DNA from: Alphaproteobacteria bacterium UBA2966
GTDB taxonomy: Bacteria; Pseudomonadota; Alphaproteobacteria; UBA2966
Assembly: GCA_002348365.1 (NCBI GenBank)
Contig: DEBC01000137.1
Coordinates: forward strand, 21,821 to 85,820
DNA: 64,000 nucleotides
Reading direction: 5' to 3'
Positions 12,021-53,249 of this stretch are shown here, one piece after another. A program made the position numbers and the translations under genes. Under the pieces are notes generated by a model, which was given only the letters and a program-made list of their open reading frames with translations, had not been told where the DNA came from and did not search any database. Within the stretch, counting starts at the first letter, position 1, and each line of letters begins with the position of its first letter.

Positions 12021-12069
12021 ACGATGGCTTGCTTGCAGGGGTCCGGGTAAGCTGGTAGGACACCATGAT

Positions 12070-12738: not shown

Positions 12739-12752
12739 ATGACGGGAGTGCC

Positions 12753-20628: not shown

Positions 20629-20639
20629 ATTCGACCGTC

Positions 20640-23899: not shown

Positions 23900-24726
23900 C
23901 GACCACACCGATCTTCATCGGCGGCCTTTTCAAGTCTGGAACCAGCCTGCTCAGGGCGATGTTGGGCCAACATTCCCACATCGCGGCCGGCCTCGAGACA
24001 TATTGGTTTGAGGTCGATTGGGACGCCCGATTGGGTCGTGACGGGGAGCCACTCGCCGACTATGTCGAGCGCATGGCGGGGTTTTTCGACATCGAGATCG
24101 AGTGGGCGCATTCAGCGGCGGAAAAGGCGGAAAGCGCTTCTGCATTCGTAACATCTATTCTGAACGAGTTCGCAATCCGGCAAGGCAAACCTCGCTGGGC
24201 CGAAAAAACGCCCGGCAACATTCTTCATGTGTCACGCATCAAGGAGAACTGGCCGGGGGCGAAAATCATTCACATCATTCGCGATCCCCGGGACGTTTAT
24301 GCCTCGCTCCGACAGGCCAAAAAATGGGATTCAGTCGAAATGTTCGGAAACCTCTGGTGTGACTTCATGGGTGCGGGAACCAGAGCAGCCAGTGTCGTTC
24401 ATGAAATGCGCTACGAAGATTTGACCCTGACCCCCGAGGAGTGCATGCGGAAGGCCATACAGTTCGTCGGCGAGCCCTGGGAACCAGGCGTCGCGGAGTT
24501 CTCGGGAAGATCAGAGGACTACGACAAAGTTATGACTTTATCCGGGCATGCGAGTTCAACACTGGACCGCCTGCGCCATCCCCTCACCAACAACCGGATT
24601 GGTATCTGGCGTGATCTGATTGCTGCAGACGAACTCAAGTCGCTCCGCGACTTCGTCGCGGATTGTGGCCTGGGTGATGCCTATGACCATATCACAGAAG
24701 CCGCGGTCACTTCGACTTCACGATGA
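23896..24726 (+). CDS. PAPS-dependent sulfotransferase, copy 1.
   Basis: 5'-PSB loop …GGLFKSGTSLL… and 3'-PB motif …IIHIIRDPRDVYASL… The ATGA start/stop overlap is at 23896-23899. Confidence 0.75.
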   Translation: MTTTPIFIGGLFKSGTSLLRAMLGQHSHIAAGLETYWFEVDWDARLGRDGEPLADYVERMAGFFDIEIEWAHSAAEKAESASAFVTSILNEFAIRQGKPRWAEKTPGNILHVSRIKENWPGAKIIHIIRDPRDVYASLRQAKKWDSVEMFGNLWCDFMGAGTRAASVVHEMRYEDLTLTPEECMRKAIQFVGEPWEPGVAEFSGRSEDYDKVMTLSGHASSTLDRLRHPLTNNRIGIWRDLIAADELKSLRDFVADCGLGDAYDHITEAAVTSTSR

Positions 24727-24750
24727 TCGCGCTGGAAAAACAGGCCTGCC

Positions 24751-25752
24751 TTGGCAAATAATTTCTCTGATACAGCCAGTCCCGCCCTTCTGTTCGTCAA
24801 CTACCATTACATTCGGGACCCGGCGCAGTACATCTATCCGGGGATCCACCCTATAGCGCCGGATGACTTCACGGCACAGGTCGATTGGCTGTCCGATCGT
24901 TTTCATATGGCATCACCGGAAGAGGCGCAGGCTTACATCTCGGGGCAGGCGAGCTTGCCATCCGACAGCGTGGTTCTGACTTTCGATGACGGCCTGATGG
25001 ATCAGTACCGGATTGCGGTCGACGTCTTGGACCCACGTGGCATCAAGGGCATCTTTTTCGTGACATCGCAGCCCTTGACCGAAGGGCACGCCAACACCCT
25101 CCAGAAGACGCACTGGCTCCGCGCGATGACGGAGCCTGGAGAGTTTCAAGTTCAGCTCCTCGACATGCTTCAGGCGGAGTGGCGAATGGCGATGGATGAA
25201 CCGGCGTCGCAAGCTGCTGCGGAGGGAATCTATATCTACGACGACCCTGACGTCGGTCGCGTCAAGTACCTCATCAATTTCCTTCTACCCGAATCGCTGA
25301 TGGATGAACTGTCCAGCGGGATGCTCGCCGATCGGGGTGTCGCTGAAGCTGACTTCTGCACCGACATGTACATGTCCGAGAGAAACGTTCAGGAACTTCA
25401 CCGCAGCGGACACATAATCGGCGCTCACGGGCACAGACACATACCATTCACGCGCATTCCCGACGGTGATACGACGGAAATCGAGACGAACACAGCATTT
25501 CTCTCCTCTCTCGTCGGCAAACAGCCGGAATGGGTGTCCTATCCCTTCGGACGGGACTGGGCGATTCCTGACGATCCGGAGTCGTTCTGTAGACATCATG
25601 GATTCAGGTTTGGTCTCACCCTCACCCAAGGGTGGAATGTCGGAACGGAGTCGCCTTACCTGCTCAAGCGCGTCAACACCAATGAAGTCGAGATGACGGC
25701 CCAGGAACGCCTTCAAATTCATTCACAAGAAAACGCTGCTGGAGTCGGTTGA
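24751..25752 (+). CDS. Polysaccharide deacetylase (NodB-homology, CE4).
   Basis: …VVLTFDDGLMDQY… (TFDDG motif) and later His motifs (…IIGAHGHRH…). The TTG start is at 24751. Confidence 0.7.
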   Translation: MANNFSDTASPALLFVNYHYIRDPAQYIYPGIHPIAPDDFTAQVDWLSDRFHMASPEEAQAYISGQASLPSDSVVLTFDDGLMDQYRIAVDVLDPRGIKGIFFVTSQPLTEGHANTLQKTHWLRAMTEPGEFQVQLLDMLQAEWRMAMDEPASQAAAEGIYIYDDPDVGRVKYLINFLLPESLMDELSSGMLADRGVAEADFCTDMYMSERNVQELHRSGHIIGAHGHRHIPFTRIPDGDTTEIETNTAFLSSLVGKQPEWVSYPFGRDWAIPDDPESFCRHHGFRFGLTLTQGWNVGTESPYLLKRVNTNEVEMTAQERLQIHSQENAAGVG

Positions 25753-29687: not shown

Positions 29688-29703
29688 TTCCCAGCACTCA
29701 CCC

Positions 29704-31102: not shown

Positions 31103-32467
31103 ATGTCATCACGACCGTGGCTTCTTCTCCCCATCGAAACCAAGCACCGGGAATTTTATGGCAAGATATTGTTGTCACTCGCCGCAGCCGAACGGGGTTT
31201 CGAAGTACTGCTCGGCGAACAGAACGCCATGCTTTCCCAACTCGATAACCTCCCCCAAGGCATATATCTCGACAAGAGCGTCGGCCGCACGAAGACCAAG
31301 TATTTCAAGAGACTTGATGCGCGAGGTTGCCGGATCGTGGCGTGGTGCGAAGAGGGCCTCGTCTATCGCGACCGCGACGCCTATCTGCACGAGCGTGTTT
31401 CCAACGCATCTCTGGCGCTAGCCAACAGGTTCTTCGCCTGGGGCGATGTGCAGGCCAATGATATTCACAAGCAAGCCCCAGAGGCGGATGCCAAGGTGCG
31501 GATCACCGGCAACCCACGCTTCGACATGTTGCGACCCGAATTCCGCAGTGTCTTCACGCCCGCGGCCGACAAGATTCGACAGTGCTACGGTCCATACATC
31601 CTCATCAATTCGAACTTCAGCCGGTACAACCACTTCATGGGCTACGACTTCTGGATCGAGGCCCTAAAACAGCGCGGCACGATCACGAACGATGAACAGC
31701 TCGCCTTCTACCATCGCTGGCGCGACTTCCTGGGAAAGGTCTTTCACGGCTTCATCCGTGTCATGCCGGCTCTCTCATCTGCATTCCCCGATCGGACGTT
31801 ACTGGTACGGCCACATCCGTCTGAAGATCACGCTACCTGGCTCCGCGAAACGGCTGCACTCAACAATGTCACCGTTGTGCATGAGGACAGCGCAATCCCC
31901 TGGATCGCAGGTGCCGATGCCGTCATACACAACAGCTGCACCACCGGTCTTGAGGCGTACCTTCTGGGTATTCCTGTTGCTGCATTCCGGCCTGCTGTCG
32001 ATGAGACATTTGATTCCCACCTCCCGAATGCGGTCAGTCACGAAGCGGTGGACGGCGAGGGCCTTATTGAAACCCTGCGCGAGCTCCTGGCGGGCACCGC
32101 GACCCCGCCGCCTTCCGCACAATCGGAGGTGAATAGATATGTAGCCGCGCTCGATGGCTCACTCGCGGGAGACCGTGTCGCGGATGCGTTGATCGAAATC
32201 TCTTTACGCTGTGAACCCCAGAAAATGGGACCGATACGACGCGCGAGAATTGCCCGGGAAAACACTGTCTCGGCGCTTAAGCCTATGCTCAGACGGATAC
32301 GCCGCAGCCATAAAGCGACGTCCTACGCGAAGCAAAAGTTTCCCGGAATTGAGCTCTCAGAGGTCGAACACGCCATAAACCAATTGAGAGACGTCTCGGG
32401 TCGCTTCGCCGGCATCACTTCGACGCGTTCACCGTTCCGTCACTGTTTTCGGATTTGCAAGACCTAA
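31103..32467 (+). CDS. Putative sialyltransferase-like glycosyltransferase, tandem paralogue 3 of 3.
   Basis: Contains …IVAWCEEGLVYRD… (D/E-D/E-G-type motif) and …LLVRPHPSEDH… (HP motif) ~160 aa apart. This matches the spacing of the two bacterial sialyltransferase motifs. The C-terminus …GADAVIHNSCTTGLEAYLLGIPV… parallels paralogues 1 and 2. Confidence 0.5.
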   Translation: MSSRPWLLLPIETKHREFYGKILLSLAAAERGFEVLLGEQNAMLSQLDNLPQGIYLDKSVGRTKTKYFKRLDARGCRIVAWCEEGLVYRDRDAYLHERVSNASLALANRFFAWGDVQANDIHKQAPEADAKVRITGNPRFDMLRPEFRSVFTPAADKIRQCYGPYILINSNFSRYNHFMGYDFWIEALKQRGTITNDEQLAFYHRWRDFLGKVFHGFIRVMPALSSAFPDRTLLVRPHPSEDHATWLRETAALNNVTVVHEDSAIPWIAGADAVIHNSCTTGLEAYLLGIPVAAFRPAVDETFDSHLPNAVSHEAVDGEGLIETLRELLAGTATPPPSAQSEVNRYVAALDGSLAGDRVADALIEISLRCEPQKMGPIRRARIARENTVSALKPMLRRIRRSHKATSYAKQKFPGIELSEVEHAINQLRDVSGRFAGITSTRSPFRHCFRICKT

Positions 32468-32486: not shown

Positions 32487-33656
32487 TCAGCCTGCCTCTA
32501 CACCACCGCCCACCCATTTGATACGCGGCTCCATCGTGTCGAGATTCACGTTGTCCCGGTACCGTTCGACACGATCCATCATCGATCCCACGACCTCGCT
32601 GGTCAGAAGATGGGGTTGCAGCCCCAGGTCTGTCAGCTTGGAATGTTTGGCATTGTAGTAGTGCGACTCCTGCTCCACCCGCGGGTTCGCCACGTTCTCG
32701 ATTACGACATCCAGGCCACGCGTCCTGCCGGTCTCTTGCACGAGGTTGGCGAGATTGAGGATTGAATACTCCTCGGTGAACTGGTTGAAGACACGGAACT
32801 CTCCGGGCTTAGCCGGATTCCGCGCCGCCAACTCGACGCATTGAAGGGTATCGCGAATATTCAGAATTCCCCGGGTTTGACCGCCCTTCCCATACACGGA
32901 CAGCGGTTGCCCCATCACGGCCTGAACGACGAAACGGTTCAGCACTGTCCCGAACACATGGTCGTAGTGAAAGGATGTCGCCAACTCATCGTCGAGAAGC
33001 GTTTCCGTCGTGTCGATGCCGTAGACCACGCCCTGGTTCAGATCGGTCGCACGGACACCCCAGATTCGACAGGTAAACGCGATGTTGTTCGAATCATGAA
33101 CCTTTGACAGGTGATAAAAGCTGTGCGGCTTCTTCGGGTAGAGCACGGTGTCGGTCCGCCCGTTGTGGGTGACCGTCAGATAACCTTCCTCTATGTCGAT
33201 GTTAGGGGTGCCGTACTCACCCATGCTCCCGAGCTTGACCAGGTGGGCGTCCGGGCAATGACGTCGAAGCGCGAACAGAACGTTCAACGTGCCGGTCACA
33301 TTGCCCATTTGGGTCAGGACAGCTGTAGTCCGGCCCTGCATGGAATAGGGGGCCGAAGGCTGTTCGGCGTAATGGATGATGACTTCGGGCTGCGCGGCCT
33401 GAAACAGGTTGTAAACGAACCGGTGATTGGTCAGATCGCCGACGCGCAACTCAATGGTTTTACCCGTTAGTTCTTTCCATCGACGGACTCGGCGATGCAA
33501 CGTGGGCACGGGCGCGATCGGCTCGACACCTTCTTCCAGCTCCCACTGGCGCTTGGCGAAATTGTCCGCCACCCAAACTTCGTCCCCCGCAGAAGAGAAA
33601 TGCATGGCGGTGGGCCAACCGAGATAGCCGTCACCACCCAAGACCAATACGCGCAT
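32487..33656 (-). CDS. sqdB: UDP-sulfoquinovose synthase (SqdB/SQD1/Agl3 family).
   Basis: MRVLVLGGDGYLGWPTAMHFS… and …HYAEQPSAPYSM…, …HLVKLGSMGEYGTPNIDIEEGY…, …FYHLSKVHDSNNIAFTCRIWGVRATDLNQGVVYG…, …LNRFVVQAVMGQPLSVYGKGGQTRG…IRDTLQCVELA… These blocks match SQD1/SqdB closely. Confidence 0.8.
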   Translation of the reverse strand: MRVLVLGGDGYLGWPTAMHFSSAGDEVWVADNFAKRQWELEEGVEPIAPVPTLHRRVRRWKELTGKTIELRVGDLTNHRFVYNLFQAAQPEVIIHYAEQPSAPYSMQGRTTAVLTQMGNVTGTLNVLFALRRHCPDAHLVKLGSMGEYGTPNIDIEEGYLTVTHNGRTDTVLYPKKPHSFYHLSKVHDSNNIAFTCRIWGVRATDLNQGVVYGIDTTETLLDDELATSFHYDHVFGTVLNRFVVQAVMGQPLSVYGKGGQTRGILNIRDTLQCVELAARNPAKPGEFRVFNQFTEEYSILNLANLVQETGRTRGLDVVIENVANPRVEQESHYYNAKHSKLTDLGLQPHLLTSEVVGSMMDRVERYRDNVNLDTMEPRIKWVGGGVEAG

Positions 33657-33748: not shown

Positions 33749-34489
33749 TCAAGCAGACTGCTCGATGTGTGGAAGCGAGACAAAACCGGCCCGAAGCAAC
33801 AAGTCACCCAGCCTGAAATCGTCAGGACCGTCGCAATCGAATCCATAAACGGCGGGCACTTCGACGGCTATGGAGGGGTCAGCGAAAACCGCCCCGGATT
33901 GAAGAATACTCTCCGATCGAAAAACAACCAGATTTCCGAACAGGTGATGCTTTGGCTTTGACTGTTTGTTGTAAGCCTGGAGTCGCTCTTCCGCGAAACG
34001 CCAACTCACGTAACCATCCGAGACCAAGCGTTGATTGTAGGCATGATGATTATGCGGACAGTCGATGACCGTCTGCGCCGATCCCGCCGAGGGATCGGCC
34101 AGAAGCTCTTTCACGCAGGTATCGATCTGCTCCGGCAAGATGAATGGCGAAGTTGGCTGCAACAACGCGATACATTCGGGCACGCCTCCCGAATCGGTCC
34201 CGCTGGTACGAAGAAAGTCCACTATGACATCAGCAACCGCAACCGAGTCGCCCGAAAGCGCAGCCGGCCGGGCACTCACTTCAACCTGCAATTCGCGGCA
34301 TCGCGCTTCAATTGGCTGAGAATCCGTGCTGCAGATGATTCGCGCCACCGAGGCACTCTGTTGCGCTGCGAGAGCGCAGTAATCGAGAAGCGGCCGCCCG
34401 CCCAGATCTGCGATGTTCTTGAGCGGTACGCTTCTTGAGCCGCCGCGCGCGGGGATCAGTCCCCAGCACACTCCAGGCAGAACGTTCAT
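33749..34489 (-). CDS. Acylneuraminate (nonulosonic acid) cytidylyltransferase, CMP-sugar synthetase copy 2.
   Basis: …GLIPARGGSRSVPLKN… CTP_transf_3. The ATGA overlap with the upstream 2-HADH gene is at 34486-34489. Confidence 0.8.
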   Translation of the reverse strand: MNVLPGVCWGLIPARGGSRSVPLKNIADLGGRPLLDYCALAAQQSASVARIICSTDSQPIEARCRELQVEVSARPAALSGDSVAVADVIVDFLRTSGTDSGGVPECIALLQPTSPFILPEQIDTCVKELLADPSAGSAQTVIDCPHNHHAYNQRLVSDGYVSWRFAEERLQAYNKQSKPKHHLFGNLVVFRSESILQSGAVFADPSIAVEVPAVYGFDCDGPDDFRLGDLLLRAGFVSLPHIEQSA

Positions 34490-35466
34490 GTTTCACCACC
34501 GCCCTTGCCTGAAAAGTACTCGACCGCCATGTCAACGACCCGCCTCTGGGTATCTCGCCAAGCATCAACCGTCGACCCACCGATGTGCGGTGTGATCAAC
34601 AGGTTGGAATGCGATCGGGCGTAATCCACAAGAGGATGCGCCGAAGCTTGAAATCCGGGATCGTATTCTCCGTCCAGCACATCGGTGGCGGCACCCGCAA
34701 TGGCGTTGCTCTTGAGCGCGTTCAAAAGGGCACTTTCATCAACAATTTCGCCGCGTGCTGTGTTTATCAAAACCGCTGATTTCTTCATGTGACCCAGTGA
34801 CTCGCGGTCAATCAGATGATGAGTCGAGTCATTGGCGGGCACATGAATCGATACGACGTCCGATTGCGCCAAGAGGTCTTTGAGGTTGTCGACCCGAAGG
34901 TACTCTGGGGACGGCGCCTCGACGTTGGGGTCAAAGTAACAAACCTGCATGCCGAACGCGCGGCCGTAACTTGCCAGTTTCTTCCCGAGCCGCCCCAGTC
35001 CGACAATGCCCAGTGAAAGCCGAGACAGCATGGCCGGTGCGCCGAAGTCGAATCGATTCCACGACCCATCCAGCACTGCGCCGTAGCTCCATGGAGTCCG
35101 CCGCAGCAGCGCCAACATCAGACCGAATGCGTGCTCCGCCGTAGGTGTGATCGTGTCGAGGAACGCCTGCTCGTCCTTCAGCGAAAACACCCGAATGCCA
35201 CGAGACGCCGCAGCTTCCATATCGATGTGGGGAACGCCGGTCGTGTTGCTTATGATGGCGCGCAGGTGAGAACACCGGACCATTTTTTTGGCGTCGAACA
35301 GATAGCCAAGGGGCGCGAAGCAGGCATCTACCTGCGAGAGGATCTCATCCGAATCCTCTGCAGGCGTGGGCAGCGCAATGACTTCGAACTCTTTCTCCAG
35401 CAAGGCCAAGTTCTCGGGCTGGTAGGAAAGCAGGTCGTAGTAGAGAACGCGAGGCTTGTCCGGCAA
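34486..35466 (-). CDS. D-isomer-specific 2-hydroxyacid dehydrogenase family protein (third copy in the window).
   Basis: …LGIVGLGRLGKKLA…, …LINTARGEIVDE…, …ITPHIGGST… It sits between the neuC-like and CMP-transferase genes. Confidence 0.8.
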   Translation of the reverse strand: MPDKPRVLYYDLLSYQPENLALLEKEFEVIALPTPAEDSDEILSQVDACFAPLGYLFDAKKMVRCSHLRAIISNTTGVPHIDMEAAASRGIRVFSLKDEQAFLDTITPTAEHAFGLMLALLRRTPWSYGAVLDGSWNRFDFGAPAMLSRLSLGIVGLGRLGKKLASYGRAFGMQVCYFDPNVEAPSPEYLRVDNLKDLLAQSDVVSIHVPANDSTHHLIDRESLGHMKKSAVLINTARGEIVDESALLNALKSNAIAGAATDVLDGEYDPGFQASAHPLVDYARSHSNLLITPHIGGSTVDAWRDTQRRVVDMAVEYFSGKGGGET

Positions 35467-35467: not shown

Positions 35468-36613
35468 TCAGTAGGTCATTTGCTTGTTGAGAAGATTCTG
35501 GTCCACAACAACCGTTGCCAGCACATCCGTTATGCGGCGGTATGCAGTGCCGTCCCCGAACGGGGGCTGGACGTCGCGAAGGCGTTGGCGGAACTCCTCG
35601 TCGGAGACACAACGTTCGATGGCCGTTCGTATGGCATCTCGATCGTAATCGACGTCCATAACGTTTGCCGCGCGTTCTCGGCCTTTCTGTCGCTCCCCGA
35701 TATTCACGGAGGGGAGCCCAAAGTAAGGCGCTTCTATCAGGGCTGCCGATGAGTTCCCCACAATACACGCCGCCAACTTTTCCAGGCCGATGAAGTCAGC
35801 CGCCGGAATGTTGCGATGTACTGAAAGACCGGGTGAGTCGGCGACTCGTTCGATCTCTGAAATGATGCCTTCGAAACCTTGATCAGAGCAGGGGTAAACC
35901 AGCATGGCGCGATGACCCGTGGCAACCACGGCGGCGACGGTTTCGGCCATCTGGTCAGCCGCTCTGTGAGACACAGTCGAATCCGAATGCTGGAGGACAA
36001 GCATGAACGGCGCTTCCTCACTCAGATCATACTTCGCGCGGAGTTCGTCCGCGGGCGTTATGTCGCCGAGAAACACCTGATCAATATGGGTATCGCCTAC
36101 GACATGCACACGCCATGGCTCCTCCCCCATCGCGACAATTCGATCTGCGGAGGCCTGCGTTGAAGGAAAATGAATATGGGCAAGCTTGGTGATCGCATGC
36201 CGAACGGGTTCGTCCAGGCTTCCGGAAATATCGCCGCCCTGCACGTGCGCGATTGCCACCCGCATGTTGTGCGCGGCAATACAGGCGGCAAACACTTCGC
36301 CTCTGTCTCCAATGACCAGAAGAATATCGGGCTGCAGGTCCCCGAGAACCTGAGCGGCTTTTGTCAGGCAGCGCCCTATCGCTCCCGCCCGGTCCCGATT
36401 GGAATCGCCTTCCTGTTCCATGTCGATTGTCGCCGACACCGGGAATCGGGCTTGAACTTCGGTCACCGTCTTACCGAACCGGTCATACAGGTGTTGATCG
36501 GTGACCACGAGTTGAAGCGACAAGTCTGGGCTTTGTTGGATGGCATCCATGGTAGGCGCCAAGGCGCCAAATCCCCCGCGCTTGCCGTTCCACACACAGA
36601 CACGACGCATCAC
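35468..36613 (-). CDS. neuC: UDP-N-acetylglucosamine 2-epimerase (hydrolysing), NeuC/LegG-type, copy 1.
   Basis: Epimerase_2 fold: …DLLLVIGDRGEVFAACIAAHNMRVAIAHVQGGD…VRHAITKLAHIHFPST…. Confidence 0.85.
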   Translation of the reverse strand: MMRRVCVWNGKRGGFGALAPTMDAIQQSPDLSLQLVVTDQHLYDRFGKTVTEVQARFPVSATIDMEQEGDSNRDRAGAIGRCLTKAAQVLGDLQPDILLVIGDRGEVFAACIAAHNMRVAIAHVQGGDISGSLDEPVRHAITKLAHIHFPSTQASADRIVAMGEEPWRVHVVGDTHIDQVFLGDITPADELRAKYDLSEEAPFMLVLQHSDSTVSHRAADQMAETVAAVVATGHRAMLVYPCSDQGFEGIISEIERVADSPGLSVHRNIPAADFIGLEKLAACIVGNSSAALIEAPYFGLPSVNIGERQKGRERAANVMDVDYDRDAIRTAIERCVSDEEFRQRLRDVQPPFGDGTAYRRITDVLATVVVDQNLLNKQMTY

Positions 36614-37641
36614 ACGAGGTCCTCGAACGACAAAGCTTCATCGGCGACGACATCTCTGGCCAGCGTCCGACCGATGAATTCGGGCAGACGGTTGGACAGA
36701 ACTCCAGTGCCGGGCCGCTTCGTCGCCAGATCTTCTCTGGAAATGATGAGCCCTTCGGCAAGGTCCCGTGACGCGACCACCGACTTCAAAGCCCATGCCT
36801 GAGCGTCCACTTCCGAGGGCGCGGGTTCCTTTCTGCCGTGTCCGAGCAACGTCTCGATCCGCCGGATGTCTCGAACGAGACCCGGAAAGTCGTCCGGACC
36901 TGCGGATACCCTCCAGTCCTGGGCATCTGGAATGTCACGCAGGATCGTAATGTGTTTCTCAACGATCGATGCGCCGCGCGCCACGGCAGACAAAATGGCC
37001 AGATGATCTTCGGTATGGTCGGAATATCCGACAGGTCCCGGAAAAATTGATTGGAGCGCATCCATGGCCGAGAGATTCACATCAGATTCAGGTGTCGGAT
37101 AACTCGTCACGCAGTGCAGCAGCGCGACTTCGTCCATTCCGGCGTTGGAGAGGGCATCGAGCGCTTCCGTTACATCGGATTCCCGGTACATGCCCGTCGA
37201 GACGATCATTGGCTTTCCGAGCTGGGCCAACTGGGAGAGAAACTCGGGATTGTTCCGTTCACCCGAACCCACTTTAACCGCCGGAACATCAAGCTCCCGC
37301 AACCAATCAATTCGCGAGGCATCATGCGCCGTCGCCATGAACAGAAGGCCCGCTGCATCGCAGCGTTCCTTCAGTTCCTGAAACTGGGGCAACGACAAGT
37401 TTCTCGGCCGGAGGCGGTCGCGCCAGTCGGGCGCCGACTCCGCGATGAGCTCATCCACGTCGAACACCTGTGTTTTAAAGATATCGGCACCCGCTTCCGC
37501 GGCGAGATCCACGAGTTGGCGGGCGAGATCCATATCGCCAAAGTGTGCAACGCCGGCCTCCGCAATCACGAAGACAGGCGCGTCCGCCCCGACTTCTCGA
37601 TCGCCGATTCGAAAGCGCGATTTGAATTTCGAGGCGGGCAT
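36610..37641 (-). CDS. neuB: N-acylneuraminate (nonulosonic acid) synthase, NeuB/LegI/PseI family, copy 1.
   Basis: …PVFVIAEAGVAHFGDMDLARQLVD…DIFKTQ… NeuB TIM barrel plus a C-terminal SAF/antifreeze-like domain (…ATKRPGTGVL…). The ATGA overlap with neuC is at 36610-36613. Confidence 0.85.
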   Translation of the reverse strand: MPASKFKSRFRIGDREVGADAPVFVIAEAGVAHFGDMDLARQLVDLAAEAGADIFKTQVFDVDELIAESAPDWRDRLRPRNLSLPQFQELKERCDAAGLLFMATAHDASRIDWLRELDVPAVKVGSGERNNPEFLSQLAQLGKPMIVSTGMYRESDVTEALDALSNAGMDEVALLHCVTSYPTPESDVNLSAMDALQSIFPGPVGYSDHTEDHLAILSAVARGASIVEKHITILRDIPDAQDWRVSAGPDDFPGLVRDIRRIETLLGHGRKEPAPSEVDAQAWALKSVVASRDLAEGLIISREDLATKRPGTGVLSNRLPEFIGRTLARDVVADEALSFEDLV

Positions 37642-37743
37642 TCGGCTAGAAACCTTGCAATTTGGTGCGCATCTGCACGTTCGGATGCAGGCCCTTCACG
37701 CCTTCGAGGGGTTCGAATTCTGACATGATTCAAGCCTAAACCC

Positions 37744-37798
37744 TTGACGAACCTTCGATTAACAGCATAGCGTTCACACGATGAACACGCTGGCGGTA
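37744..37798 (+). promoter_or_regulatory. Second copy of the TTGACG-N17-ATAGCGTTC…TGAACACGCT motif, plus a sigma70-like TTCACA-N18-TATGAT promoter facing the ABC exporter gene.
   Basis: TTGACG is at 37744-37749, ATAGCGTTC at 37767-37775 and TGAACACGCT at 37782-37791. TATGAT (37794-37799) lies 18 nt downstream of TTCACA (37770-37775). The motif sits in the divergent neuB1 / ABC-exporter intergenic region. Confidence 0.35.
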
Positions 37799-37945
37799 TG
37801 ATGCGTCACTTGGCCCAGGCTGTAAAGCGTCGATGAGTGGTGCGGCGGGTGGTCGAGAGCACCATCGAGTTTGCTCCCAGCGCCCGCGGTATCGCCTCCA
37901 TAGGACCTATGTACCGCACCCGGAACACCAAGAGAGAGAGAATTC

Positions 37946-39691
37946 TTGAACCGACGGTTCGAAACACTTGGAAAAATCCGCCACCTCATCGCTAGGCGCG
38001 AATGGATCATTCTCGGACTCTGTTGCCTGATGCTCCTTGCCTCAGTCGCTGAGAGCATGGGACTGGCTCTTGTTCTCCCGCTGATCTCCAGTCTCACCGG
38101 TGTATCCGAGGGTTCCGGCACGGTTGCTGAGATTAGTGTAAGACTGCGGGAACTGATCCCTGATGGGGTTGAGCTTGAAGGCCTGGTGTTATTGGTGGCC
38201 CTGGCGTTTCTGCTCAAAGGCGTTCTTCTGGTGATGTCTCGTGGCGCCGCCGACTATTTCTCCTTCCGTCTGCGTGAAGACTGGGCCGCAAAGATTTTTG
38301 ATCACTACCTGCGCGCCCGCTATGCCTACGCGACGTCGCAGCGGCAGGGCGAGATGGTGAACAACATCACGATCGAGCCTTATCGGGCCGCCCGGGCGAT
38401 CACCGTCCTTCTCGATTTCTTGAATCGGATAATTCTGGCGACCGTGCTGCTTACAGTCCTGCTCTTCACCAACTGGCAGGCGACACTGACTATTTCGCTG
38501 GTTGGCGCGCTTCTGTTCTTTGCCGTTCGCAAGTCCACATTCAACTACTCCCTTCACTTCGGCAAGCTGCGCCAGAAGCTCTACCAGCAAATTTCATCCA
38601 TAGGAGCCGAAGCCACCGGGGCGGCCCTTCAGGTGAAGCTGTTCGGAATCTACGACCAGGTGACGGGAGAATTGACCGCCAGGCTCAAACGACACACGCG
38701 TGCTGAGACACTCTTTCGAATTCTCAATGAGATCCCTCTCCAGTCGACCGAATTCCTCATCGTCCTTTTCCTGAGCGTTGCGCTGATCACCCTCAAACAG
38801 GTGGGCGACGTCGCACCGGAAAGCATTGCGGCAATGTTGGGCTTTTATGTTGTGCTCGGTCAGCGGCTTCTCACCAACGTCAATTTCATCATTTCGCGAC
38901 GGATGAAGATTGCCTCACAGATCCCGTCACTGATGCTGATGCATGAGCTGATTGAGAACATTCCCGACCGCGAAGACATCGAAACAGGTCAGGAACTCGC
39001 AACCCTTGACGACGACATTGTCTTCGAGAATGTGACCTTCAGCCATGAGAACGGCAAGCGCGTTTTCCGCGATCTCAACCTGCGTATACCCAAAGGGAAA
39101 ATCACCGGAATCGTTGGCCCATCCGGCACCGGCAAGTCAACGTTCGCCGACCTCATCCTGGGTCTATATGCTCCCGATCACGGGAGTGTCAGCGTCGGGG
39201 GTCATGTGCTCTCGACATATAATCTCCGATCGGTCCGCCAGCGAATTGGGTACGTGAGCCAAGCCCCCGAAATCTTCAATACTTCGATCCGAGAGAACAT
39301 ACGGATTGGCAATCCCAGCGCATCTGAGGATGAAGTGGTTGCAGCTGCCCGCGATGCCCATGCCTTCGATTTTGTTGCCGAACTGCCCGACGGTTTCGAT
39401 ACCGTTGTCGGAGATCGTGGCGTGAAGTTGTCGGGCGGACAGAGGCAGCGGATCGCGATCGCGCGGGTCATTCTGCGCGCACCCGATCTTTACATTTTCG
39501 ACGAGGCGACAAGCGCCCTCGACACTGAATCGGAACGCCTCATTCAAGACTCGATCCAACGTCTTGCGCACAACGCGACAATTGTCATCATCGCGCACCG
39601 CCTCTCCACGGTGCAATCAGCCGACGTGATTTACGAACTCGATGACACCGGAAAAGCGACAGCGCGCGAATTTTCCGAGATTGCTGTATAG
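37946..39691 (+). CDS. ABC transporter, fused permease/ATPase (MsbA/PglK/NdvA-like type I exporter).
   Basis: Six N-terminal TM helices, Walker A GPSGTGKST, the signature LSGGQRQRIAIAR and Walker B IFDEATSALD. The TTG start at 37946 has an AGAGAGAGA RBS. Confidence 0.85.
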   Translation: MNRRFETLGKIRHLIARREWIILGLCCLMLLASVAESMGLALVLPLISSLTGVSEGSGTVAEISVRLRELIPDGVELEGLVLLVALAFLLKGVLLVMSRGAADYFSFRLREDWAAKIFDHYLRARYAYATSQRQGEMVNNITIEPYRAARAITVLLDFLNRIILATVLLTVLLFTNWQATLTISLVGALLFFAVRKSTFNYSLHFGKLRQKLYQQISSIGAEATGAALQVKLFGIYDQVTGELTARLKRHTRAETLFRILNEIPLQSTEFLIVLFLSVALITLKQVGDVAPESIAAMLGFYVVLGQRLLTNVNFIISRRMKIASQIPSLMLMHELIENIPDREDIETGQELATLDDDIVFENVTFSHENGKRVFRDLNLRIPKGKITGIVGPSGTGKSTFADLILGLYAPDHGSVSVGGHVLSTYNLRSVRQRIGYVSQAPEIFNTSIRENIRIGNPSASEDEVVAAARDAHAFDFVAELPDGFDTVVGDRGVKLSGGQRQRIAIARVILRAPDLYIFDEATSALDTESERLIQDSIQRLAHNATIVIIAHRLSTVQSADVIYELDDTGKATAREFSEIAV

Positions 39692-39721
39692 CTGGATAAC
39701 AGCCCCCCTACGAACACCCGC

Positions 39722-40777
39722 ATGACACACCCCACCATTGAAATCGCAGGCAAGACCATCGGCATTGGCCAGCCGGCGTTCCTGATCGCCGAAGTCGCCC
39801 AAACTCATGACGGATCGCTTGGCCTCGCTCATGCGTTCATCGATGCAGCGGCTGATACCGGGGCAGATGCCATCAAGTTTCAGACCCACATCGCCGATGC
39901 CGAATCCACGCTCGATGAAGAGTTCCGGGTTGCATTCAGCAAACAGGACAAGACGCGGTACGACTACTGGAAGCGCATGGAATTTACGCCTGAGCAGTGG
40001 TCGGGTCTGGCCGAACATGCCAGCGCGCGAGGCGTGGTGTTTCTCAGTTCGGCCTTTTCGGTGGCAGCCATCAATCTTCTGGAAGCGATTGGCATCCCGG
40101 CGTGGAAGGTAGGTTCCGGAGAATTCAGGTCGGACGACCTTCTGGCACGCCTGTGCGAGACCGGATTTCCGGTCATTTTCTCTACGGGGATGAGCACGTG
40201 GCAGGAAATTGAAACCGCTGTCGCAGCGTTTCAGGAGCAGAAGTCGCCGCTTGCGCTCCTTCAGTGCACGAGCCGTTACCCAACGCCTCTTGAGGAAGTC
40301 GGGCTGAATGTCATCGACGACCTTCGAAACCGCTTTGACGTCCCAGCCGGACTGTCGGATCACTCAGGGAGTATTTATCCATCGCTTGCCGCACTCGCGC
40401 GCGGTGCCAATCTCATCGAGGTCCACCTGACACTCGACAGGCGATTGTTTGGTCCCGATGTCCCGGTATCGCTGACACCTGACGAGATGCGAACGGTGTG
40501 CGAGGCGCGTGACGCCTTTGCGGTCATGGACGCCAATCCTGTCGACAAGGAGACCATGGCCAAGAACCTCAGCACCATGCGTGATCTCTTCACCAAGAGC
40601 CTGGCGGTGACGCGTCCTCTCGCAGCGGGTACCAGGCTGACACCAGATATGTTGACCTCGAAAAAGCCCGGCACCGGCATACCCGCTGGGGATCTGGGGG
40701 GCTTTGTGGGTCGAACCCTCGCGCGTGACGTATCACCTGACCGTTTGCTTTCTCTCGAGGATATTGATGGCGGATAA
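39722..40777 (+). CDS. neuB: N-acylneuraminate (nonulosonic acid) synthase, NeuB/LegI/PseI family, copy 2.
   Basis: …PAFLIAEVAQTHDGSLGLAHAFIDAAADTGADAIKFQTH… and a C-terminal SAF domain (…SKKPGTGIP…). Confidence 0.85.
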   Translation: MTHPTIEIAGKTIGIGQPAFLIAEVAQTHDGSLGLAHAFIDAAADTGADAIKFQTHIADAESTLDEEFRVAFSKQDKTRYDYWKRMEFTPEQWSGLAEHASARGVVFLSSAFSVAAINLLEAIGIPAWKVGSGEFRSDDLLARLCETGFPVIFSTGMSTWQEIETAVAAFQEQKSPLALLQCTSRYPTPLEEVGLNVIDDLRNRFDVPAGLSDHSGSIYPSLAALARGANLIEVHLTLDRRLFGPDVPVSLTPDEMRTVCEARDAFAVMDANPVDKETMAKNLSTMRDLFTKSLAVTRPLAAGTRLTPDMLTSKKPGTGIPAGDLGGFVGRTLARDVSPDRLLSLEDIDGG

Positions 40778-42002
40778 ACGCAAGATTTGCATCGTGGTGA
40801 ACAGCCGGGCCAATTACGCCCGAATCAAATCCGTCATGCGCGCCATCGAAGAGCACGAGGCTTTGGACCTCAAGCTTATCGTCGGTGCTTCGGCGCTGCT
40901 CCACCGGTTTGGCGCGGTTCGCGACATCATCGAAGCTGATGGCTTTACTCCGGTATCGACCGTTTACTCCATCGTCGAAGGTGAAACACCAACGACAATG
41001 GCAAAGTCGACAGGTATGGGCATCATCGAGCTCGCGACTCAATTCGAAAACATTCAGCCCGATATCGTCCTGACTGTCGCCGACAGGTTCGAGACGATCG
41101 CGACCGCCATCGCCGCCAGCTATATGAATATTCCCGTTGCGCACACACAAGGCGGGGAAGTCACAGGTTCCATCGACGAAAGCGTGCGCCATGCCGTAAC
41201 CAAGCTCGCGCATATTCATTTTCCTGCGACGGGTCGGGCTCGGGACAACGTCGTGCGTATGGGTGAGGACCCGGAAATGGTGTTTCTCACCGGATGTCCA
41301 TCAATCGACCTTATTGCGGATCTCGATCTACGAATGCCGCCCGATATGTTTGAGCGGTATCGCGGTGTCGGCGCACAAATTGACCCGTCGCAGCCTTACC
41401 TGGTCGTCCTCCAGCATCCCGTGACAACAGAGTACGGCTCAGGGTTAGATCAGATCTGGGAGACGCTGACCGCGGTCGAAAAAGTTGGTTTGCAGGCCGC
41501 ATGGCTATGGCCAAACGTGGATGCAGGGTCCGACGACATTTCAAAGGGACTGCGTGTTTACCGGGAGCGCAACAATCCCGACTGGCTCCACTTTTATCGT
41601 CACTTTGGCGCGGAGGATTACGCGCGCCTGATAAACAACGCGGCCTGCCTGGTCGGCAACTCAAGCTCTGGGCTGAGGGAGGGCGCATACCTCGGTGTTC
41701 CCGCAGTCAATATCGGGACCCGCCAACAAGGTCGGGAACATGGGGAGAACGTCATCCACGTCGACTATGACGCGGCGCAGATTGAAGCGACGGTCAACCA
41801 GCAAATATCTCACGGCCGGCACCAGAGCGCGCATTTATTCGGTGATGGAAATGCGGGCAGGAAAATTGCAGACGTTCTCGCCTCTGTCGAACCCAACGTT
41901 CAAAAGCGACTCACGTATGACCAGTCGCATGACCAGGGAATCCAACAGCTGGCAGAACGCGCGCGCCTGAGACGACATCTCACCGGGAACGGCACTCGAT
42001 GA
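40767..42002 (+). CDS. neuC: UDP-N-acetylglucosamine 2-epimerase (hydrolysing), NeuC-type, copy 2, with a C-terminal extension.
   Basis: …DIVLTVADRFETIATAIAASYMNIPVAHTQGGE…VRHAVTKLAHIHFPAT… The ATG at 40767 overlaps the neuB2 3' end by 11 nt. Confidence 0.8.
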   Translation: MADKRKICIVVNSRANYARIKSVMRAIEEHEALDLKLIVGASALLHRFGAVRDIIEADGFTPVSTVYSIVEGETPTTMAKSTGMGIIELATQFENIQPDIVLTVADRFETIATAIAASYMNIPVAHTQGGEVTGSIDESVRHAVTKLAHIHFPATGRARDNVVRMGEDPEMVFLTGCPSIDLIADLDLRMPPDMFERYRGVGAQIDPSQPYLVVLQHPVTTEYGSGLDQIWETLTAVEKVGLQAAWLWPNVDAGSDDISKGLRVYRERNNPDWLHFYRHFGAEDYARLINNAACLVGNSSSGLREGAYLGVPAVNIGTRQQGREHGENVIHVDYDAAQIEATVNQQISHGRHQSAHLFGDGNAGRKIADVLASVEPNVQKRLTYDQSHDQGIQQLAERARLRRHLTGNGTR

Positions 42003-43003
42003 CTTCGGTTAACAAGCACATCCTCGTCGTTGGAAGCGGCAGCGCTGGCAAGCGGCATGCTCGCAACCTCGCGTCCCGGGGCTGCACCATCTCGAGCATG
42101 GATCCGCGTCAGGACCGCCTCGCGGAGCTGGCCGAAGAGACTCCGGTGGAGCGGGGGTTCGACTCCATCGAAGCGGCTCTCGAAAACTCGGAGCGTCTAG
42201 ACGGCGTGGTCATCACATCGCCCCCCTTCTTTCACGTGGATCAAGCAATTGCGGCGATCGAGGCGAGGTTGCCGGTCCTGCTGGAGAAACCGGTCTCGCC
42301 CGATGCGACAAGCGCCCGCAAGCTAGCCCGGACTTGCGAGTCCCATGAGGTGGCACTCCTGCTGGGATACACTTGGCGCTGGTGGCCGCCCCTTCGAGAC
42401 GTCAAAACCAAGCTCGAATCGGGCGCTGTCGGGCGCCTGCGGCATGTTCGCTTCACCATGTCCGCACATCTAGCCGACTGGCATCCCTGGGAGCGCTATC
42501 AAGACTTCTTCATGTCCAGTCGAGAATTGGGTGGTGGCGCAATCCTCGACGAAAGCCATTGGATCGATCTGGCACTGTGGTTCTTCGGCATGCCGCGTTC
42601 CGTCTCGGCCCGAATCGAGAAGATCAGTGATCTCGAGATCGATGCGGACGACAATGTCGACATGATCCTGGAGTTCGATGACGGCCTGCGTGCCACCTTG
42701 CACCTCGATCTCTTCGGCAGACCTCACGAAAAGAGCATCCGATTCGTTGGCGAAGAGGGCAGTTGCTTGTGGACGGAATCACCCAATCGCGTCGCGTTTT
42801 CCGGCAGTGCCTCCGAGGACTGGGACGAGACCACATACACCTGCGAACGGAATGACATGTTTATGGGTGTGACCGAGGAATTCCTCGATGTGCTCGATGG
42901 GCAGAGCGTCACCACCTGCTCCATCGAGGATGGCGTCCGCGTACTCGACGTGATCGAGGCCGCCCGGCGCAGTCACGAAGAAGAGCGCCGCATCCCGCTA
43001 TAG
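41999..43003 (+). CDS. Gfo/Idh/MocA-family NAD(P)-dependent oxidoreductase.
   Basis: N-terminal Rossmann (…ILVVGSGSAGKRHARNL…) and a GFO_IDH_MocA C-domain. The ATGA overlap with neuC2 is at 41999-42002. Confidence 0.8.
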   Translation: MTSVNKHILVVGSGSAGKRHARNLASRGCTISSMDPRQDRLAELAEETPVERGFDSIEAALENSERLDGVVITSPPFFHVDQAIAAIEARLPVLLEKPVSPDATSARKLARTCESHEVALLLGYTWRWWPPLRDVKTKLESGAVGRLRHVRFTMSAHLADWHPWERYQDFFMSSRELGGGAILDESHWIDLALWFFGMPRSVSARIEKISDLEIDADDNVDMILEFDDGLRATLHLDLFGRPHEKSIRFVGEEGSCLWTESPNRVAFSGSASEDWDETTYTCERNDMFMGVTEEFLDVLDGQSVTTCSIEDGVRVLDVIEAARRSHEEERRIPL

Positions 43004-50033: not shown

Positions 50034-50102
50034 GATTCGCTGGATTCTCGCCGCCGGACGCGACCACGCGTATGCTAGCGGCAGGGACATGCAGATGCGA
50101 CC

Positions 50103-51176: not shown

Positions 51177-51180
51177 TCGT

Positions 51181-53148: not shown

Positions 53149-53249
53149 GAATCTGCGACAGTCCTGACGAAACGCCGCAGATCATGGTATAGCCGCAGGG
53201 CAACAACTTCCTCTCACGTCGAACCCATCTGAACCAGTCGAGCAACACC

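Follow-up and report, generated by a model that had tools for sequence, protein, structure and literature searches.

The Neu5Ac pathway of Escherichia coli K1 and Neisseria meningitidis (SiaA/SiaC/SiaB) employs NeuC, NeuB and NeuA, and a genome may hold more than one pathway to a nonulosonic acid (NulO). Campylobacter jejuni, for instance, carries several deeply diverged NeuB paralogues (NeuB1, LegI and PseI), each serving a different NulO, and the 2009 phylogenomic survey of Lewis et al. reportedly included genomes with several NulO pathways. Transfer of Pse/Leg derivatives has been proven genetically for orthologues of the Tannerella forsythia protein BFO_1060 (PMC5420450). Here, we set these systems against a hypervariable surface-glycan island, flanked by rsmB-rpe and wecA-pglF-purH, that would house two NulO pathways in an uncultured marine alphaproteobacterium (Rhodospirillaceae-like). 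The window, that is the whole stretch of DNA analysed, is 64 kb long. Our data suggest that both pathways are probably functional and anciently separated, and that each supplies a different CMP-NulO donor to a sulfated glycan, in which sulfoquinovose would be a companion sugar.

Results

As an earlier note on this DNA had claimed, NeuB and the hydrolysing NeuC each occur twice; open reading frames, Pfam domains (NeuB/SAF/Epimerase_2) and the NeuC_NnaA model agree. NeuB1, a PEP-condensing NulO synthase of the NeuB family, opens the module 1 operon (36610..37641, minus strand; Pfam NeuB 214.9 bits, plus SAF), and the NeuB-family synthase NeuB2 lies in module 2 (39722..40777, plus strand; 227.5 bits, plus SAF). 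The predicted hydrolysing NDP-HexNAc 2-epimerase NeuC1 (35468..36613, minus strand; Epimerase_2 262 bits) overlaps NeuB1 by 4 nt, and NeuC2, a GNE-like hydrolysing UDP-GlcNAc 2-epimerase (40767..42002, plus strand; 231.5 bits), overlaps NeuB2 by 11 nt, the coordinates indicating translational coupling inside each operon. In the Epimerase_2 scan the NeuC2 start is listed as 40704/40767. Both NeuCs passed the hydrolysing NCBIfam model NeuC_NnaA (TIGR03568; 356.5 bits for NeuC1, 385.1 for NeuC2, cut-off 235.9) and reached only 120 and 78 bits, respectively, with the non-hydrolysing WecB model. The C-terminal extension of NeuC2, put at about 40 residues in the note, measures about 27 past the NeuC1 end (411 vs 381 aa).

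The two expected CMP-sugar synthetases both carry CTP_transf_3 (PF02348). Synthetase 2 (33749..34489, minus strand; 75.7 bits) is syntenic with NeuB1 orthologues and makes module 1 contiguous with a synthetase of its own; synthetase 1 (23165..23899, plus strand; 52.6 bits) lies about 16 kb from NeuB2. Both fell under the PseF cut-off (83 bits for synthetase 2, 108.7 for synthetase 1). The claim of two complete modules in divergent operons thus holds for module 1 only, since module 2 has no adjacent synthetase and synthetase 1 sits in another operon, 5' of a sulfotransferase and polysaccharide deacetylase pair (23857..25752, plus strand; Sulfotransfer_3 110 bits, Polysacc_deac_1 57.7 bits) that recurs in three NulO cassettes and at three further loci. 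Because relatives of synthetase 1 (29-39% identity) partner NeuB1-type genes in other genomes, it is assigned to module 2 by elimination only.

The accessory genes named earlier were also recovered by Pfam. A D-2-hydroxyacid dehydrogenase resembling PGDH/glycerate dehydrogenases (34486..35466, minus strand; PF02826 172.6 bits; top PDB matches phosphoglycerate/glycerate dehydrogenases, ~140 bits) is an optional cassette member: 26 of ~47 related loci have it in the interval from NeuC to the CMP-synthetase. The Gfo/Idh/MocA oxidoreductase of module 2 (41999..43003, plus strand; PF01408/PF22725; top PDB match only 67 bits) is lineage-specific and was not beside the NeuB2 orthologues at two related loci. 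The module 2 operon opens with a predicted ABC exporter (37946..39691, plus strand; ABC_membrane and ABC_tran) of MsbA/PglK/HepA type, all family scores being under their cut-offs (HepA-family 328 bits, PglK 259 bits), a homologue of which adjoins NeuB1-type genes in 17 loci. Between the modules, the 304-bp divergent intergenic region (37642..37945) holds one promoter-like site per strand (+37773-37802, -37826-37798), a count not above shuffled expectation.

The copies are old paralogues that fall into separate clades, in line with the note's view that they are no recent duplication: pairwise identity is 34% for NeuB, 36% for NeuC and 26% for the synthetases, and a DNA-level search found no direct or inverted repeat between the modules. 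An assembly artefact is excluded by the identical layout in four independent metagenome assemblies and by a relative with the same gene order at 73-88% protein identity across the module genes. Neither set is degenerate, as the mappable catalytic and metal residues of N. meningitidis NeuB (NmNeuB) are intact in both NeuBs (E25, K53, Q55, K129, S132, E134, S154, Y186, S213, H215, E234, H236 and D247) and the motifs DR[FG]E, GG[ED] and D[ED]..RH are present in both NeuCs. NeuB1 (>100 orthologues, 64-72% identity) and NeuB2 (62-70%) define separate large clades across Alpha- and Gammaproteobacteria (about 60-70%), the NeuB1 clade extending to Nitrospira, and elsewhere NeuC2 is always partnered with NeuB2-type genes (60-70% identity). 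Contigs of relatives of 147446, 155688, 408120 and 501816 bp carry both NeuB clades at matching identity levels, which argues for long co-retention and non-redundancy and makes the proposal of two different NulO sugars a reasonable one.

Could both modules nevertheless make the same sugar, Neu5Ac, kept for two glycoconjugates or regulatory regimes such as capsule vs LPS? NeuB_NnaB is the best model for both NeuBs, whose scores against N. meningitidis NeuB are alike (~175 bits); both NeuCs score above the NeuC_NnaA cut-off; and the two operons are separate, divergently transcribed and differ in accessory genes. However, the active sites are not equivalent, given the 34-36% identity and the clade-specific substrate loops and R314 position. 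In NeuB1 the beta2-alpha2 loop is shortened, W73/R74/R78 are invariant, 'NAQDW' replaces 'GPD' and R314 is retained, whereas NeuB2, with loops of canonical length, has Lys in place of R314 (K315, found in 120/120 members of its clade). In NmNeuB, substitutions at R314 abolish activity; module 2, too, may therefore not use plain ManNAc. The obligatory partners also differ (NeuC2 for NeuB2, a SqdB-like gene for NeuB1), and both NeuBs miss the N-acetylneuraminate synthase equivalog cut-off (TIGR03569; NeuB1 308 bits, NeuB2 295.6, cut-off 399.65). We consider a shared product quite unlikely. The same scores make 'Neu5Ac' an unsafe label for either NeuB, and product names are inferred.

The earlier note had favoured Neu5Ac/KDN-like over Leg/Pse-type chemistry. 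KDN synthesis can dispense with a hydrolysing UDP-HexNAc 2-epimerase, and KDN is thus unlikely since both modules keep NeuC. The case against Leg/Pse stood: six-frame tblastn with a bona fide DegT query found no DegT aminotransferase in the window (best E=1.7), no acetyltransferase domain occurred in any ORF scanned, and DegT lay within 10 kb in only ~5/47 related loci. Without DegT, classical legionaminic/pseudaminic chemistry is not encoded in the window, and as no 4,6-dehydratase/aminotransferase/N-acetyltransferase triad is encoded, the likeliest products of both modules are 5-acylamino sugars of Neu type and not 5,7-diamino ones of Leg/Pse type. The genome may carry Leg/Pse precursor genes beyond the window. 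That module 1 is of the 5,7-diamino legionaminic type, with LegB/LegC/LegH equivalents outside the window and possibly the PglF-like dehydratase (51181-53148), seems highly improbable to us. NeuC1 is nearer to LegG (A. baumannii, its closest PDB match, 190 bits) than to the human GNE epimerase domain (163 bits), the reverse of NeuC2 (GNE 242 bits, LegG 206 bits), many NeuB1-clade members bear the JGI label 'N,N'-diacetyllegionaminate synthase', and a PglF/WbpM-like 4,6-dehydratase lies inside the island. Besides the missing DegT and acetyltransferase, though, NeuB1 matches the Leg-pathway synthase SpsE of B. subtilis (PMC7439481) less well, at 158 bits, than Neu5Ac synthase, at 176 bits, and the PglF-like gene is grouped with wecA at the edge of the island, where genes for making the initiating sugar usually lie.

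Module 1 had been taken to end at 35468, but its operon continues to a gene for an SQD1/SqdB-like SDR (UDP-sulfoquinovose-synthase-like; 32487..33656, minus strand), and the adjoining homologues of NulO transferases had been missed as well. The product matches Arabidopsis SQD1 (1qrr) over its full length (520 bits, ~60% identity) and keeps Y182/H183/K186/Q209, with T145->S; it scores 440 bits on NF041015 (cut-off 575). Convergent on this gene lies a candidate NulO transferase (31103..32467, plus strand; TIGR04396 389.7 bits, cut-off 125; BFO_1060-family model 81.5 bits, cut-off 200) whose 'EEG' and 'HP' motifs lie at residues 83 and 238. It is preceded by two putative glycosyltransferases of ~464 aa, paralogues of each other (28293-29687 and 29704-31098, plus strand; 39% identity), with weak BFO_1060/TIGR04396 matches (26-33 bits) and a homologue 5' of NeuB1-type genes at another locus.

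No other partner of module 1 is as conserved or as unusual as the SqdB-like gene. The cassette NeuB1-NeuC-(2-hydroxyacid dehydrogenase)-CMP-synthetase-SqdB-like is kept in ~35 unrelated loci, including cultured Thalassospira. The NulO-linked SqdB subclade has 36 members, every one with NulO genes within 8 kb, and contains no unlinked member; of 34 non-redundant loci, 24 place the SqdB-like gene <300 bp away from a NulO gene and 20 have it immediately 3' of the CMP-synthetase. Split cassettes, as on a 7.33-Mb chromosome with an MBOAT-NeuC-SqdB-SIS_2 operon 1.1 Mb from NeuB1-HADH-CMP-synthetase and likewise at one further locus, keep NeuC together with the SqdB-like gene. This operon and the SqdB-CMP-synthetase microsynteny are explained better by a link within one pathway than by a companion sugar alone.

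Such a link would make the SQD1-like enzyme the first step of module 1, converting UDP-hexose or UDP-HexNAc to a 6-deoxy-6-sulfo nucleotide sugar (without sulfite, a 6-deoxy/5,6-ene one), from which NeuC1, NeuB1 and CMP-synthetase 2 would form a CMP 9-deoxy-9-sulfo (or 9-deoxy) NulO. Further points agree with it: the whole NeuB1 superclade, down to SqdB-linked members of only 35-48% identity, shares the remodelled pocket with invariant Arg/Trp; LegG, the closest match of NeuC1, handles 6-deoxy sugars; SDR 5,6-/4,6-dehydratases feeding NulO pathways have precedent in Pen/Pal (PMC8987622); and R101, whose Ala mutant is inactive in Agl3, is Pro in the window protein and all 36 NulO-linked homologues. 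Yet Pro101 is common to sister clades in non-NulO contexts, and SqdB-linked NeuCs share a single private residue, G13. Known NeuC-family substrates are 2-acetamido sugars only, while SQD1/Agl3 use UDP-glucose, a substrate switch being putative at ~60% identity to SQD1. To our knowledge, no C-sulfonated NulO has been described, and a literature search found no paper tying sulfoquinovose to nonulosonic acids. The identity to plant SQD1 and the completeness of the catalytic set point instead to a supplier of a separate sugar, as do the pairing with a TviB-like UDP-sugar dehydrogenase at five loci, the MAG GCA_964344935.1, in which the SqdB-like gene and the NeuB1-NeuC1 cassette are on different contigs, and the link to a second, unrelated NeuB type at two loci. 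We therefore regard this first-step role as unlikely, if the least so of the alternatives. Against a separate companion sugar, no dedicated sulfoquinovosyl transferase was identified.

Discussion

We favour two NulO pathways with sulfoquinovose as a companion sugar. From family chemistry, each NeuC-type enzyme would eliminate the nucleotide from a UDP-2-acetamido sugar to give the free 2-epimerised sugar, which NeuB would join to PEP, yielding a nine-carbon 2-keto-3-deoxy acid; a CTP-dependent synthetase would turn this into CMP-NulO for attachment to the glycan by TIGR04396/BFO_1060-type transferases. Module 2 (NeuB2/NeuC2), the more canonical, would most likely make Neu5Ac or a close derivative, and module 1 (NeuB1/NeuC1/2-hydroxyacid dehydrogenase/CMP-synthetase 2), with its remodelled sugar pocket, a different NulO. 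The most likely role of the SQD1-like gene is to provide UDP-sulfoquinovose, or a near analogue, for the same glycan, which would also be sulfated, methylated and O-acylated and be exported via the adjacent ABC transporter/Wzy machinery. One of two sialic-acid-type sets is consistently tied to a sulfoquinovose-synthase-like gene in many bacteria, of which we found no prior report.

Compared with the Neu5Ac pathway of E. coli K1 and N. meningitidis, the window has the same three enzyme families and order of chemistry, with both NeuCs passing NeuC_NnaA and both NeuBs keeping the residues with which NmNeuB binds metal, PEP and sugar. It differs in NeuBs ~90-100 bits under the curated Neu5Ac-synthase cut-off, in the Lys for R314 of NeuB2 and the loop and 'NAQDW' of NeuB1, and in CMP-synthetases that match the generic CTP_transf_3 domain only. 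In multi-NulO genomes such as C. jejuni, the extra Leg/Pse pathways bring dehydratase, DegT and N-acetyltransferase, whereas both window modules go without these and use a NeuC-type epimerase. The legionaminic pathway (LegB/C/H/G/I/F of C. jejuni; A. baumannii LegG, PDB 5xvs) includes LegG, the closest match of NeuC1, and its logic of C4/C6 SDR, NeuC-type, NeuB-type and CMP-synthetase has a parallel in module 1 taken together with the SqdB-like gene; however, the window has no aminotransferase or acetyltransferase, and its SDR is SQD1-like, with only 21.5 bits on the LegB model TIGR04180. With the Tannerella forsythia transferases (Tanf_01245/TFUB4_00887/BFO_1060), the 31103-32467 product shares family models, D/E-D/E-G-like and HP motifs and a place adjoining CMP-NulO genes, though its BFO_1060 score is far under the cut-off. 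Finally, the SqdB-like protein shares with SQD1/SqdB/Agl3 the full-length match and catalytic residues and, with Agl3 of Sulfolobus N-glycans (PMC4388408), a glycan rather than sulfolipid context. It departs from them in Pro for the R101 essential in Agl3, in Ser for T145 and in its NF041015 score, and its subclade always lies within NulO cassettes, whereas the R101-bearing SqdB clade adjoins GT21-type lipid glycosyltransferases.

Two intact and diverged NeuB/NeuC gene sets

The ORFs that the earlier note had called in this region were all found where it had placed them. NeuB is encoded twice, at 36610-37641 (minus strand; NeuB1) and 39722-40777 (plus strand; NeuB2), each copy with a NeuB and a SAF domain, and so is a NeuC-type epimerase, at 35468-36613 (minus strand; NeuC1) and 40767-42002 (plus strand; NeuC2), each with an Epimerase_2 domain and a score above the NeuC/NnaA cut-off. 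Cytidylyltransferase domains are present in the two predicted CMP-sugar synthetases at 23165-23899 (plus strand; CMP-synthetase 1) and 33749-34489 (minus strand; CMP-synthetase 2). The copies are indeed diverged, as that note had proposed, with pairwise identities of 34% for NeuB, 36% for NeuC and 26% for the synthetases. Degeneration of one set was ruled out, since the mapped catalytic residues of Neisseria meningitidis NeuB (NmNeuB, our numbering reference) and the conserved NeuC motifs are intact in both. The NeuC2 C-terminal extension also exists, at about 27 rather than the suggested 40 or so amino acids.

Module 1 is a minus-strand operon of overlapping or abutting genes, NeuB1, NeuC1, a D-2-hydroxyacid dehydrogenase and CMP-synthetase 2, followed after a gap of 92 nt by an SQD1/SqdB-like gene (32487-33656) that the earlier note had omitted. 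Module 2, on the plus strand, comprises an ABC exporter, NeuB2, NeuC2 and a Gfo/Idh/MocA oxidoreductase. The notion of two complete modules thus applies to module 1, which has its own synthetase, and fails for module 2, which has none; CMP-synthetase 1 lies some 16 kb away with a sulfotransferase and then a polysaccharide deacetylase downstream. PDB and family searches returned only generic matches for the 2-hydroxyacid dehydrogenase and the Gfo/Idh/MocA enzyme. In the 304-bp spacer between the modules one promoter was predicted per strand, a count at chance level.

A recent duplication or an assembly artefact was considered and rejected: the NeuB and NeuC copies share only 34-36% identity, no DNA repeat was found between modules 1 and 2, and the same arrangement occurs in four independent metagenome assemblies, Tara Oceans data among them. 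It is also present in a relative (locus L046), the proteins of which are 73-88% identical.

Both synthases belong to the NeuB family outside the curated equivalogs

NeuB1 and NeuB2 matched the NeuB TIM-barrel (PF03102; 214.9 and 227.5 bits) and the C-terminal SAF/antifreeze-like domain (PF08666; 38.5 and 36.9 bits), and so have the domain pair of the NeuB family. The metal ligands H215 and H236 are kept in both and in about 99% of each 120-member clade. Likewise, the PEP and sugar residues E25, K53, Q55, K129, S132, E134, S154, Y186, S213, E234 and D247 are kept in both and in 120/120 members of either clade, the K53 and Q55 columns of the NeuB1 clade being taken from the HMMER alignment, as the MAFFT alignment is shifted there. 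Neither protein reached the N-acetylneuraminate synthase equivalog TIGR03569 (cut-off 399.65; 308.2 bits for NeuB1, 295.6 for NeuB2) or the PseI-type model TIGR03586 (cut-off 340.25; 201 and 220 bits), the latter scores also lying below the NeuB_NnaB score of each protein.

The two synthases differ at NmNeuB position 314, which is Arg in NeuB1 and 120/120 members of its clade and Lys in NeuB2 and 120/120 members of its own; we take R314 of NmNeuB to contact the N-acetyl group of the substrate. The Lys is residue 315 of NeuB2, and the top PDB match, 4ipj, is an engineered variant carrying the same KKPG sequence. Loop lengths are canonical in NeuB2. In NeuB1 the beta2-alpha2 loop is about 12 residues shorter and holds invariant W73, R74 and R78, with H106 and R110 nearby and 'NAQDW' in place of 'GPD'. 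The two are equally distant from NmNeuB (about 175 bits each) in a comparison with NmNeuB, SpsE, PseI, LegG and GNE that used bit scores against PDB sequences and gives a rough, non-decisive placement.

Judged from sequence, each NeuB copy is a member of an old clade of wide distribution. For NeuB1, over 100 homologues at 64-72% identity were found in Alphaproteobacteria, Gammaproteobacteria and Nitrospiraceae, and for NeuB2, homologues at 62-70%. The two match lists share contigs of 147446, 155688, 408120 and 501816 bp, at matching identity levels, so the paralogues were inherited together in this lineage. A tblastn search of 72,556 plasmids found no member of the NeuB1 clade, the best match being 42% identical, from Azospirillum.

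Both epimerases exceeded the cut-off of the hydrolysing NeuC/NnaA model TIGR03568 (235.9), with 356.5 bits for NeuC1 and 385.1 for NeuC2, as against 119.9 and 78 bits for the non-hydrolysing WecB model. NeuC2 scored higher with the human GNE epimerase domain than with LegG (242 and 206 bits), and NeuC1 the reverse (LegG 190, GNE 163 bits). Elsewhere, NeuB2-type genes always have a NeuC2-type gene directly after them, at 60-70% identity. CMP-synthetases 1 and 2 matched CTP_transf_3 with 52.6 and 75.7 bits, and the best equivalog for both was PseF (cut-off 205.7), at 108.7 and 83 bits. The differences in NeuB sequence and loops, together with the co-retention of both paralogues, argue that the two modules would yield different products.

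As to the kind of nonulosonic acid (NulO), the absence of a DegT aminotransferase and of an acetyltransferase asserted in the earlier note was borne out: a six-frame search of the 64 kb with a bona fide DegT query from a related locus gave a best E-value of 1.7, and none of the ORFs scanned carries an acetyltransferase domain. Accordingly, the legionaminic LegB, LegC (DegT) and LegH set upstream of LegG/LegI was not found in the 64-kb window, where the sole 4,6-dehydratase-type candidate of that kind is PglF-like (51181-53148). Nor does the window hold the pseudaminic PseB/PseC/PseH/PseG and PseI set, as it lacks DegT and has NeuC-type instead of PseG-type enzymes. A KDN pathway, with a synthase that takes mannose or Man-6-P (and a phosphatase) and with no need for a 2-epimerase, seems unlikely given that both modules have kept NeuC. 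For both modules, we infer the identity of the product.

The modules lie in a variable glycan island

Three proteins of about 460 amino acids without a Pfam match are encoded convergently to the SqdB-like gene. The product of 31103-32467, the closest of the three to that gene, scored 389.7 bits with TIGR04396, a model of NulO-transferase-like proteins (cut-off 125), and also matched the BFO_1060-family model; it has the D/E-D/E-G-type motif EEG (residue 83) and an HP motif (residue 238). The other two (28293-31098), a pair of paralogues, scored 26-33 bits with these models and lack both motifs. In Tannerella forsythia, genetic work has proven that the BFO_1060 orthologues transfer derivatives of pseudaminic or legionaminic acid, and these proteins carry D/E-D/E-G and HP motifs (PMC5420450).

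Elsewhere in the island, which spans about 12.7-53 kb, are genes for a second sulfotransferase and several methyltransferases, for an MBOAT O-acyltransferase, a TPP enzyme and a GT4 glycosyltransferase, and for Wzy-like, TviB-like (UDP-sugar dehydrogenase) and heparinase II/III-like proteins; those for WecA-like and PglF-like proteins lie at the edge. Its borders are rsmB-rpe-heparinase II/III (10707-14447) and wecA-pglF-purH (50103-54824); the same borders enclose other content in relatives (L131, L129), which makes it a hypervariable replacement island. At the island start, an HTH_24 regulator and a NusG-like paralogue, a probable operon-specific antiterminator (15927-17113, plus strand), form a pair that adjoins NeuB cassettes of both types elsewhere (L044, 7315-8513; L128, 2672-3843). 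The operon at 17181-23124 (plus strand) encodes a methyltransferase, a 2-hydroxyacid dehydrogenase, the acetolactate-synthase-like TPP enzyme, the MBOAT protein and a weakly SGNH-like protein, and may produce an unusual acyl or hydroxy-acid substituent and transfer it; TPP-enzyme homologues lie close to NeuB1 cassettes at eight loci.

The sulfotransferase directly followed by the polysaccharide deacetylase (23857-25752, plus strand) recurs beside NulO genes at unrelated loci (among them L005, 15528-17314; L041, 6297-8172). The pair resembles N-deacetylase/N-sulfotransferase logic and might serve N-sulfation of an amino sugar or a NulO. The 309-aa product of 25771-26700 (plus strand) matched no family, contains the H-x-D-like sequence 'FHVDND' and is a possible tailoring enzyme of the dioxygenase type; Nitrospira loci (L031, L035, L036) have homologues of it between NeuC and the SqdB-like gene. 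Between the Wzy-like gene and wecA, the island also contains an ECF/cobalt-type transporter pair, CbiQ and an ABC ATPase (48730-50090, minus strand). Just outside the island, an operon at 6696-9601 (plus strand) encodes an HpcH/HpaI aldolase, a 2-hydroxyacid dehydrogenase (the third in the window) and an aldo-keto reductase. A 1616-aa NAD-specific glutamate dehydrogenase (56556-61406, minus strand) adjoins a conventional 460-aa Glu/Leu/Phe/Val dehydrogenase (61756-63138, plus strand).

An SQD1-like gene travels with module 1

The SqdB-like protein (32487-33656, minus strand) gave a full-length match of 520 bits to Arabidopsis SQD1 and keeps the Y182/H183/K186 motif. The SDR triad T145/Y182/K186 and H183 are represented, with 'SFYHLSKVHDS' kept and Ser at T145, and these residues are conserved in 36/36 NulO-linked homologues. 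The protein scored 440.4 bits with the UDP-sulfoquinovose synthase model NF041015, short of its cut-off of 575. Arg101 of 'AEQRSAP' is replaced, the window protein reading 'AEQPSAPY'; 36/36 NulO-linked homologues have Pro here, as against Arg for SQD1 itself and for 21/23 homologues that are unlinked. In archaeal Agl3, the R101A mutant is inactive (PMC4388408). As proof of a new function the replacement is weakened, because Pro101 is shared by sister groups in GT2/flippase contexts devoid of NulO genes; it marks a larger clade and not necessarily a new reaction.

Scanning GTDB species-representative genomes with NeuB1 gave 31 loci, among them some in Thalassospira lucentensis DSM 14000, T. lohafexi, a Tagaea genome, Hyphomicrobiaceae, a gammaproteobacterium and Nitrospira, and synteny mapping placed an SqdB-like gene within 10 kb at 21 of the 31. 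Seventeen of these SqdB-like proteins are 63-73% identical to that of the window and four, from Nitrospira, 45%. In the reverse search of metagenome contigs, homologues of at least 63% identity led to NulO cassettes; those at 58-62% lay mostly outside such cassettes and had GT21-type glycosyltransferases as neighbours, the setting expected of a lipid-synthesis gene. A neighbour-joining tree placed all 36 NulO-linked sequences in one subclade with no unlinked member inside. Among 34 non-redundant loci, fewer than 300 bp separate the SqdB-like gene from a NulO gene in 24, and in 20 it lies immediately 3' of a CMP-synthetase of any type, on the same strand. No fusion with a NulO enzyme was seen among the best 120 homologues. 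Seven SqdB-linked NulO cassettes (among them L033, 5808-7877; L049, 2189-4321; L127, 2500-4680) contain a B12-binding radical SAM protein that the window lacks, and asparagine-synthase-like and amidase genes also recur in such cassettes.

What the linkage means can be read in two ways. It is possible, though we think it unlikely, that the product of the SqdB-like enzyme is the substrate of NeuC and NeuB1. The fixed SqdB/CMP-synthetase microsynteny favours such a link, as does a 7.33-Mb chromosome in which NeuB1, the dehydrogenase and the synthetase stand alone (L010) and, at a distance of 1.1 Mb, a NeuC1-type gene and the SqdB-like gene share an operon next to sulfate-activation genes (L126); L130 shows the same. 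So does the Arg-rich, remodelled NeuB1 pocket, common even to SqdB-linked NeuBs of only 35-48% identity. There is also a precedent: SQD1 and Agl3 act as 5,6-dehydratases when sulfite is absent, and 5,6-dehydratases of the Pen/Pal type feed a NulO pathway (PMC8987622).

We give more weight to the alternative that the SqdB-like gene serves a separate sugar made beside the NulO. The protein shares about 60% identity with plant SQD1, its catalytic set being complete, and to our knowledge NeuC enzymes act solely on 2-acetamido sugars. A private signature is nearly absent from SqdB-linked NeuCs, G13 being the one such position. The SqdB-like gene is often paired with a TviB-like dehydrogenase (L016, L052, L128, L129, L131), is linked to a second, unrelated NeuB type at two loci (L048, L127), and in one MAG lies on a different contig from NeuB1-NeuC1.

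Should the SqdB-like product instead enter the NulO pathway, the NeuB1-NeuC-(2-hydroxyacid dehydrogenase)-CMP-synthetase-SQD1-like cassette could conceivably, if improbably, lead to a C-sulfonated (9-deoxy-9-sulfo) sialic-acid-like sugar. The SQD1-type enzyme would then put the sulfonate on the nucleotide-sugar precursor, a step that would take the place of the 4,6-dehydratase in legionaminic acid pathways. In the papers searched we found no link between sulfoquinovose and nonulosonic acids, and none names both; sqdB and neuB were named together in an unrelated review and in the Haloquadratum walsbyi genome paper, and the string 'sulf' does not occur in the text of a NulO mass-spectrometry survey (PMC8157484).

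Significance and comparison with known systems

NulOs shape the recognition of bacterial surfaces by phages, grazers and immune systems, and how diverse they are among environmental bacteria is still poorly charted. Here, abundant marine and soil lineages have retained two NeuB/NeuC pairs that are non-canonical and that the present curated models cannot name, and module 1 is a fixed travelling cassette with a sulfoquinovose-synthase-like gene and sulfotransferases. Whether the glycan combines NulO with sulfoquinovose or the NulO itself is sulfonated, either case would broaden what is known of bacterial glycan chemistry and connect the biology of NulOs with the marine organosulfur cycle. A C-sulfonated sugar, if real, would be a new NulO class with a broad distribution across Alpha- and Gammaproteobacteria of sea and soil and across Nitrospira. 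Among cultured Thalassospira strains, T. lucentensis DSM 14000, T. lohafexi 139Z-12 and Thalassospira sp. MCCC 1A01148 (L033, L034 and L029) carry the cassette, so direct testing is possible.

Several NulO pathways in one genome is already a known situation, Campylobacter jejuni having three NeuB paralogues. Unlike in such genomes, both modules described here depend on NeuC and lack an amination branch, neither synthase fits a curated equivalog, and one module lies within a conserved SQD1-like cassette.
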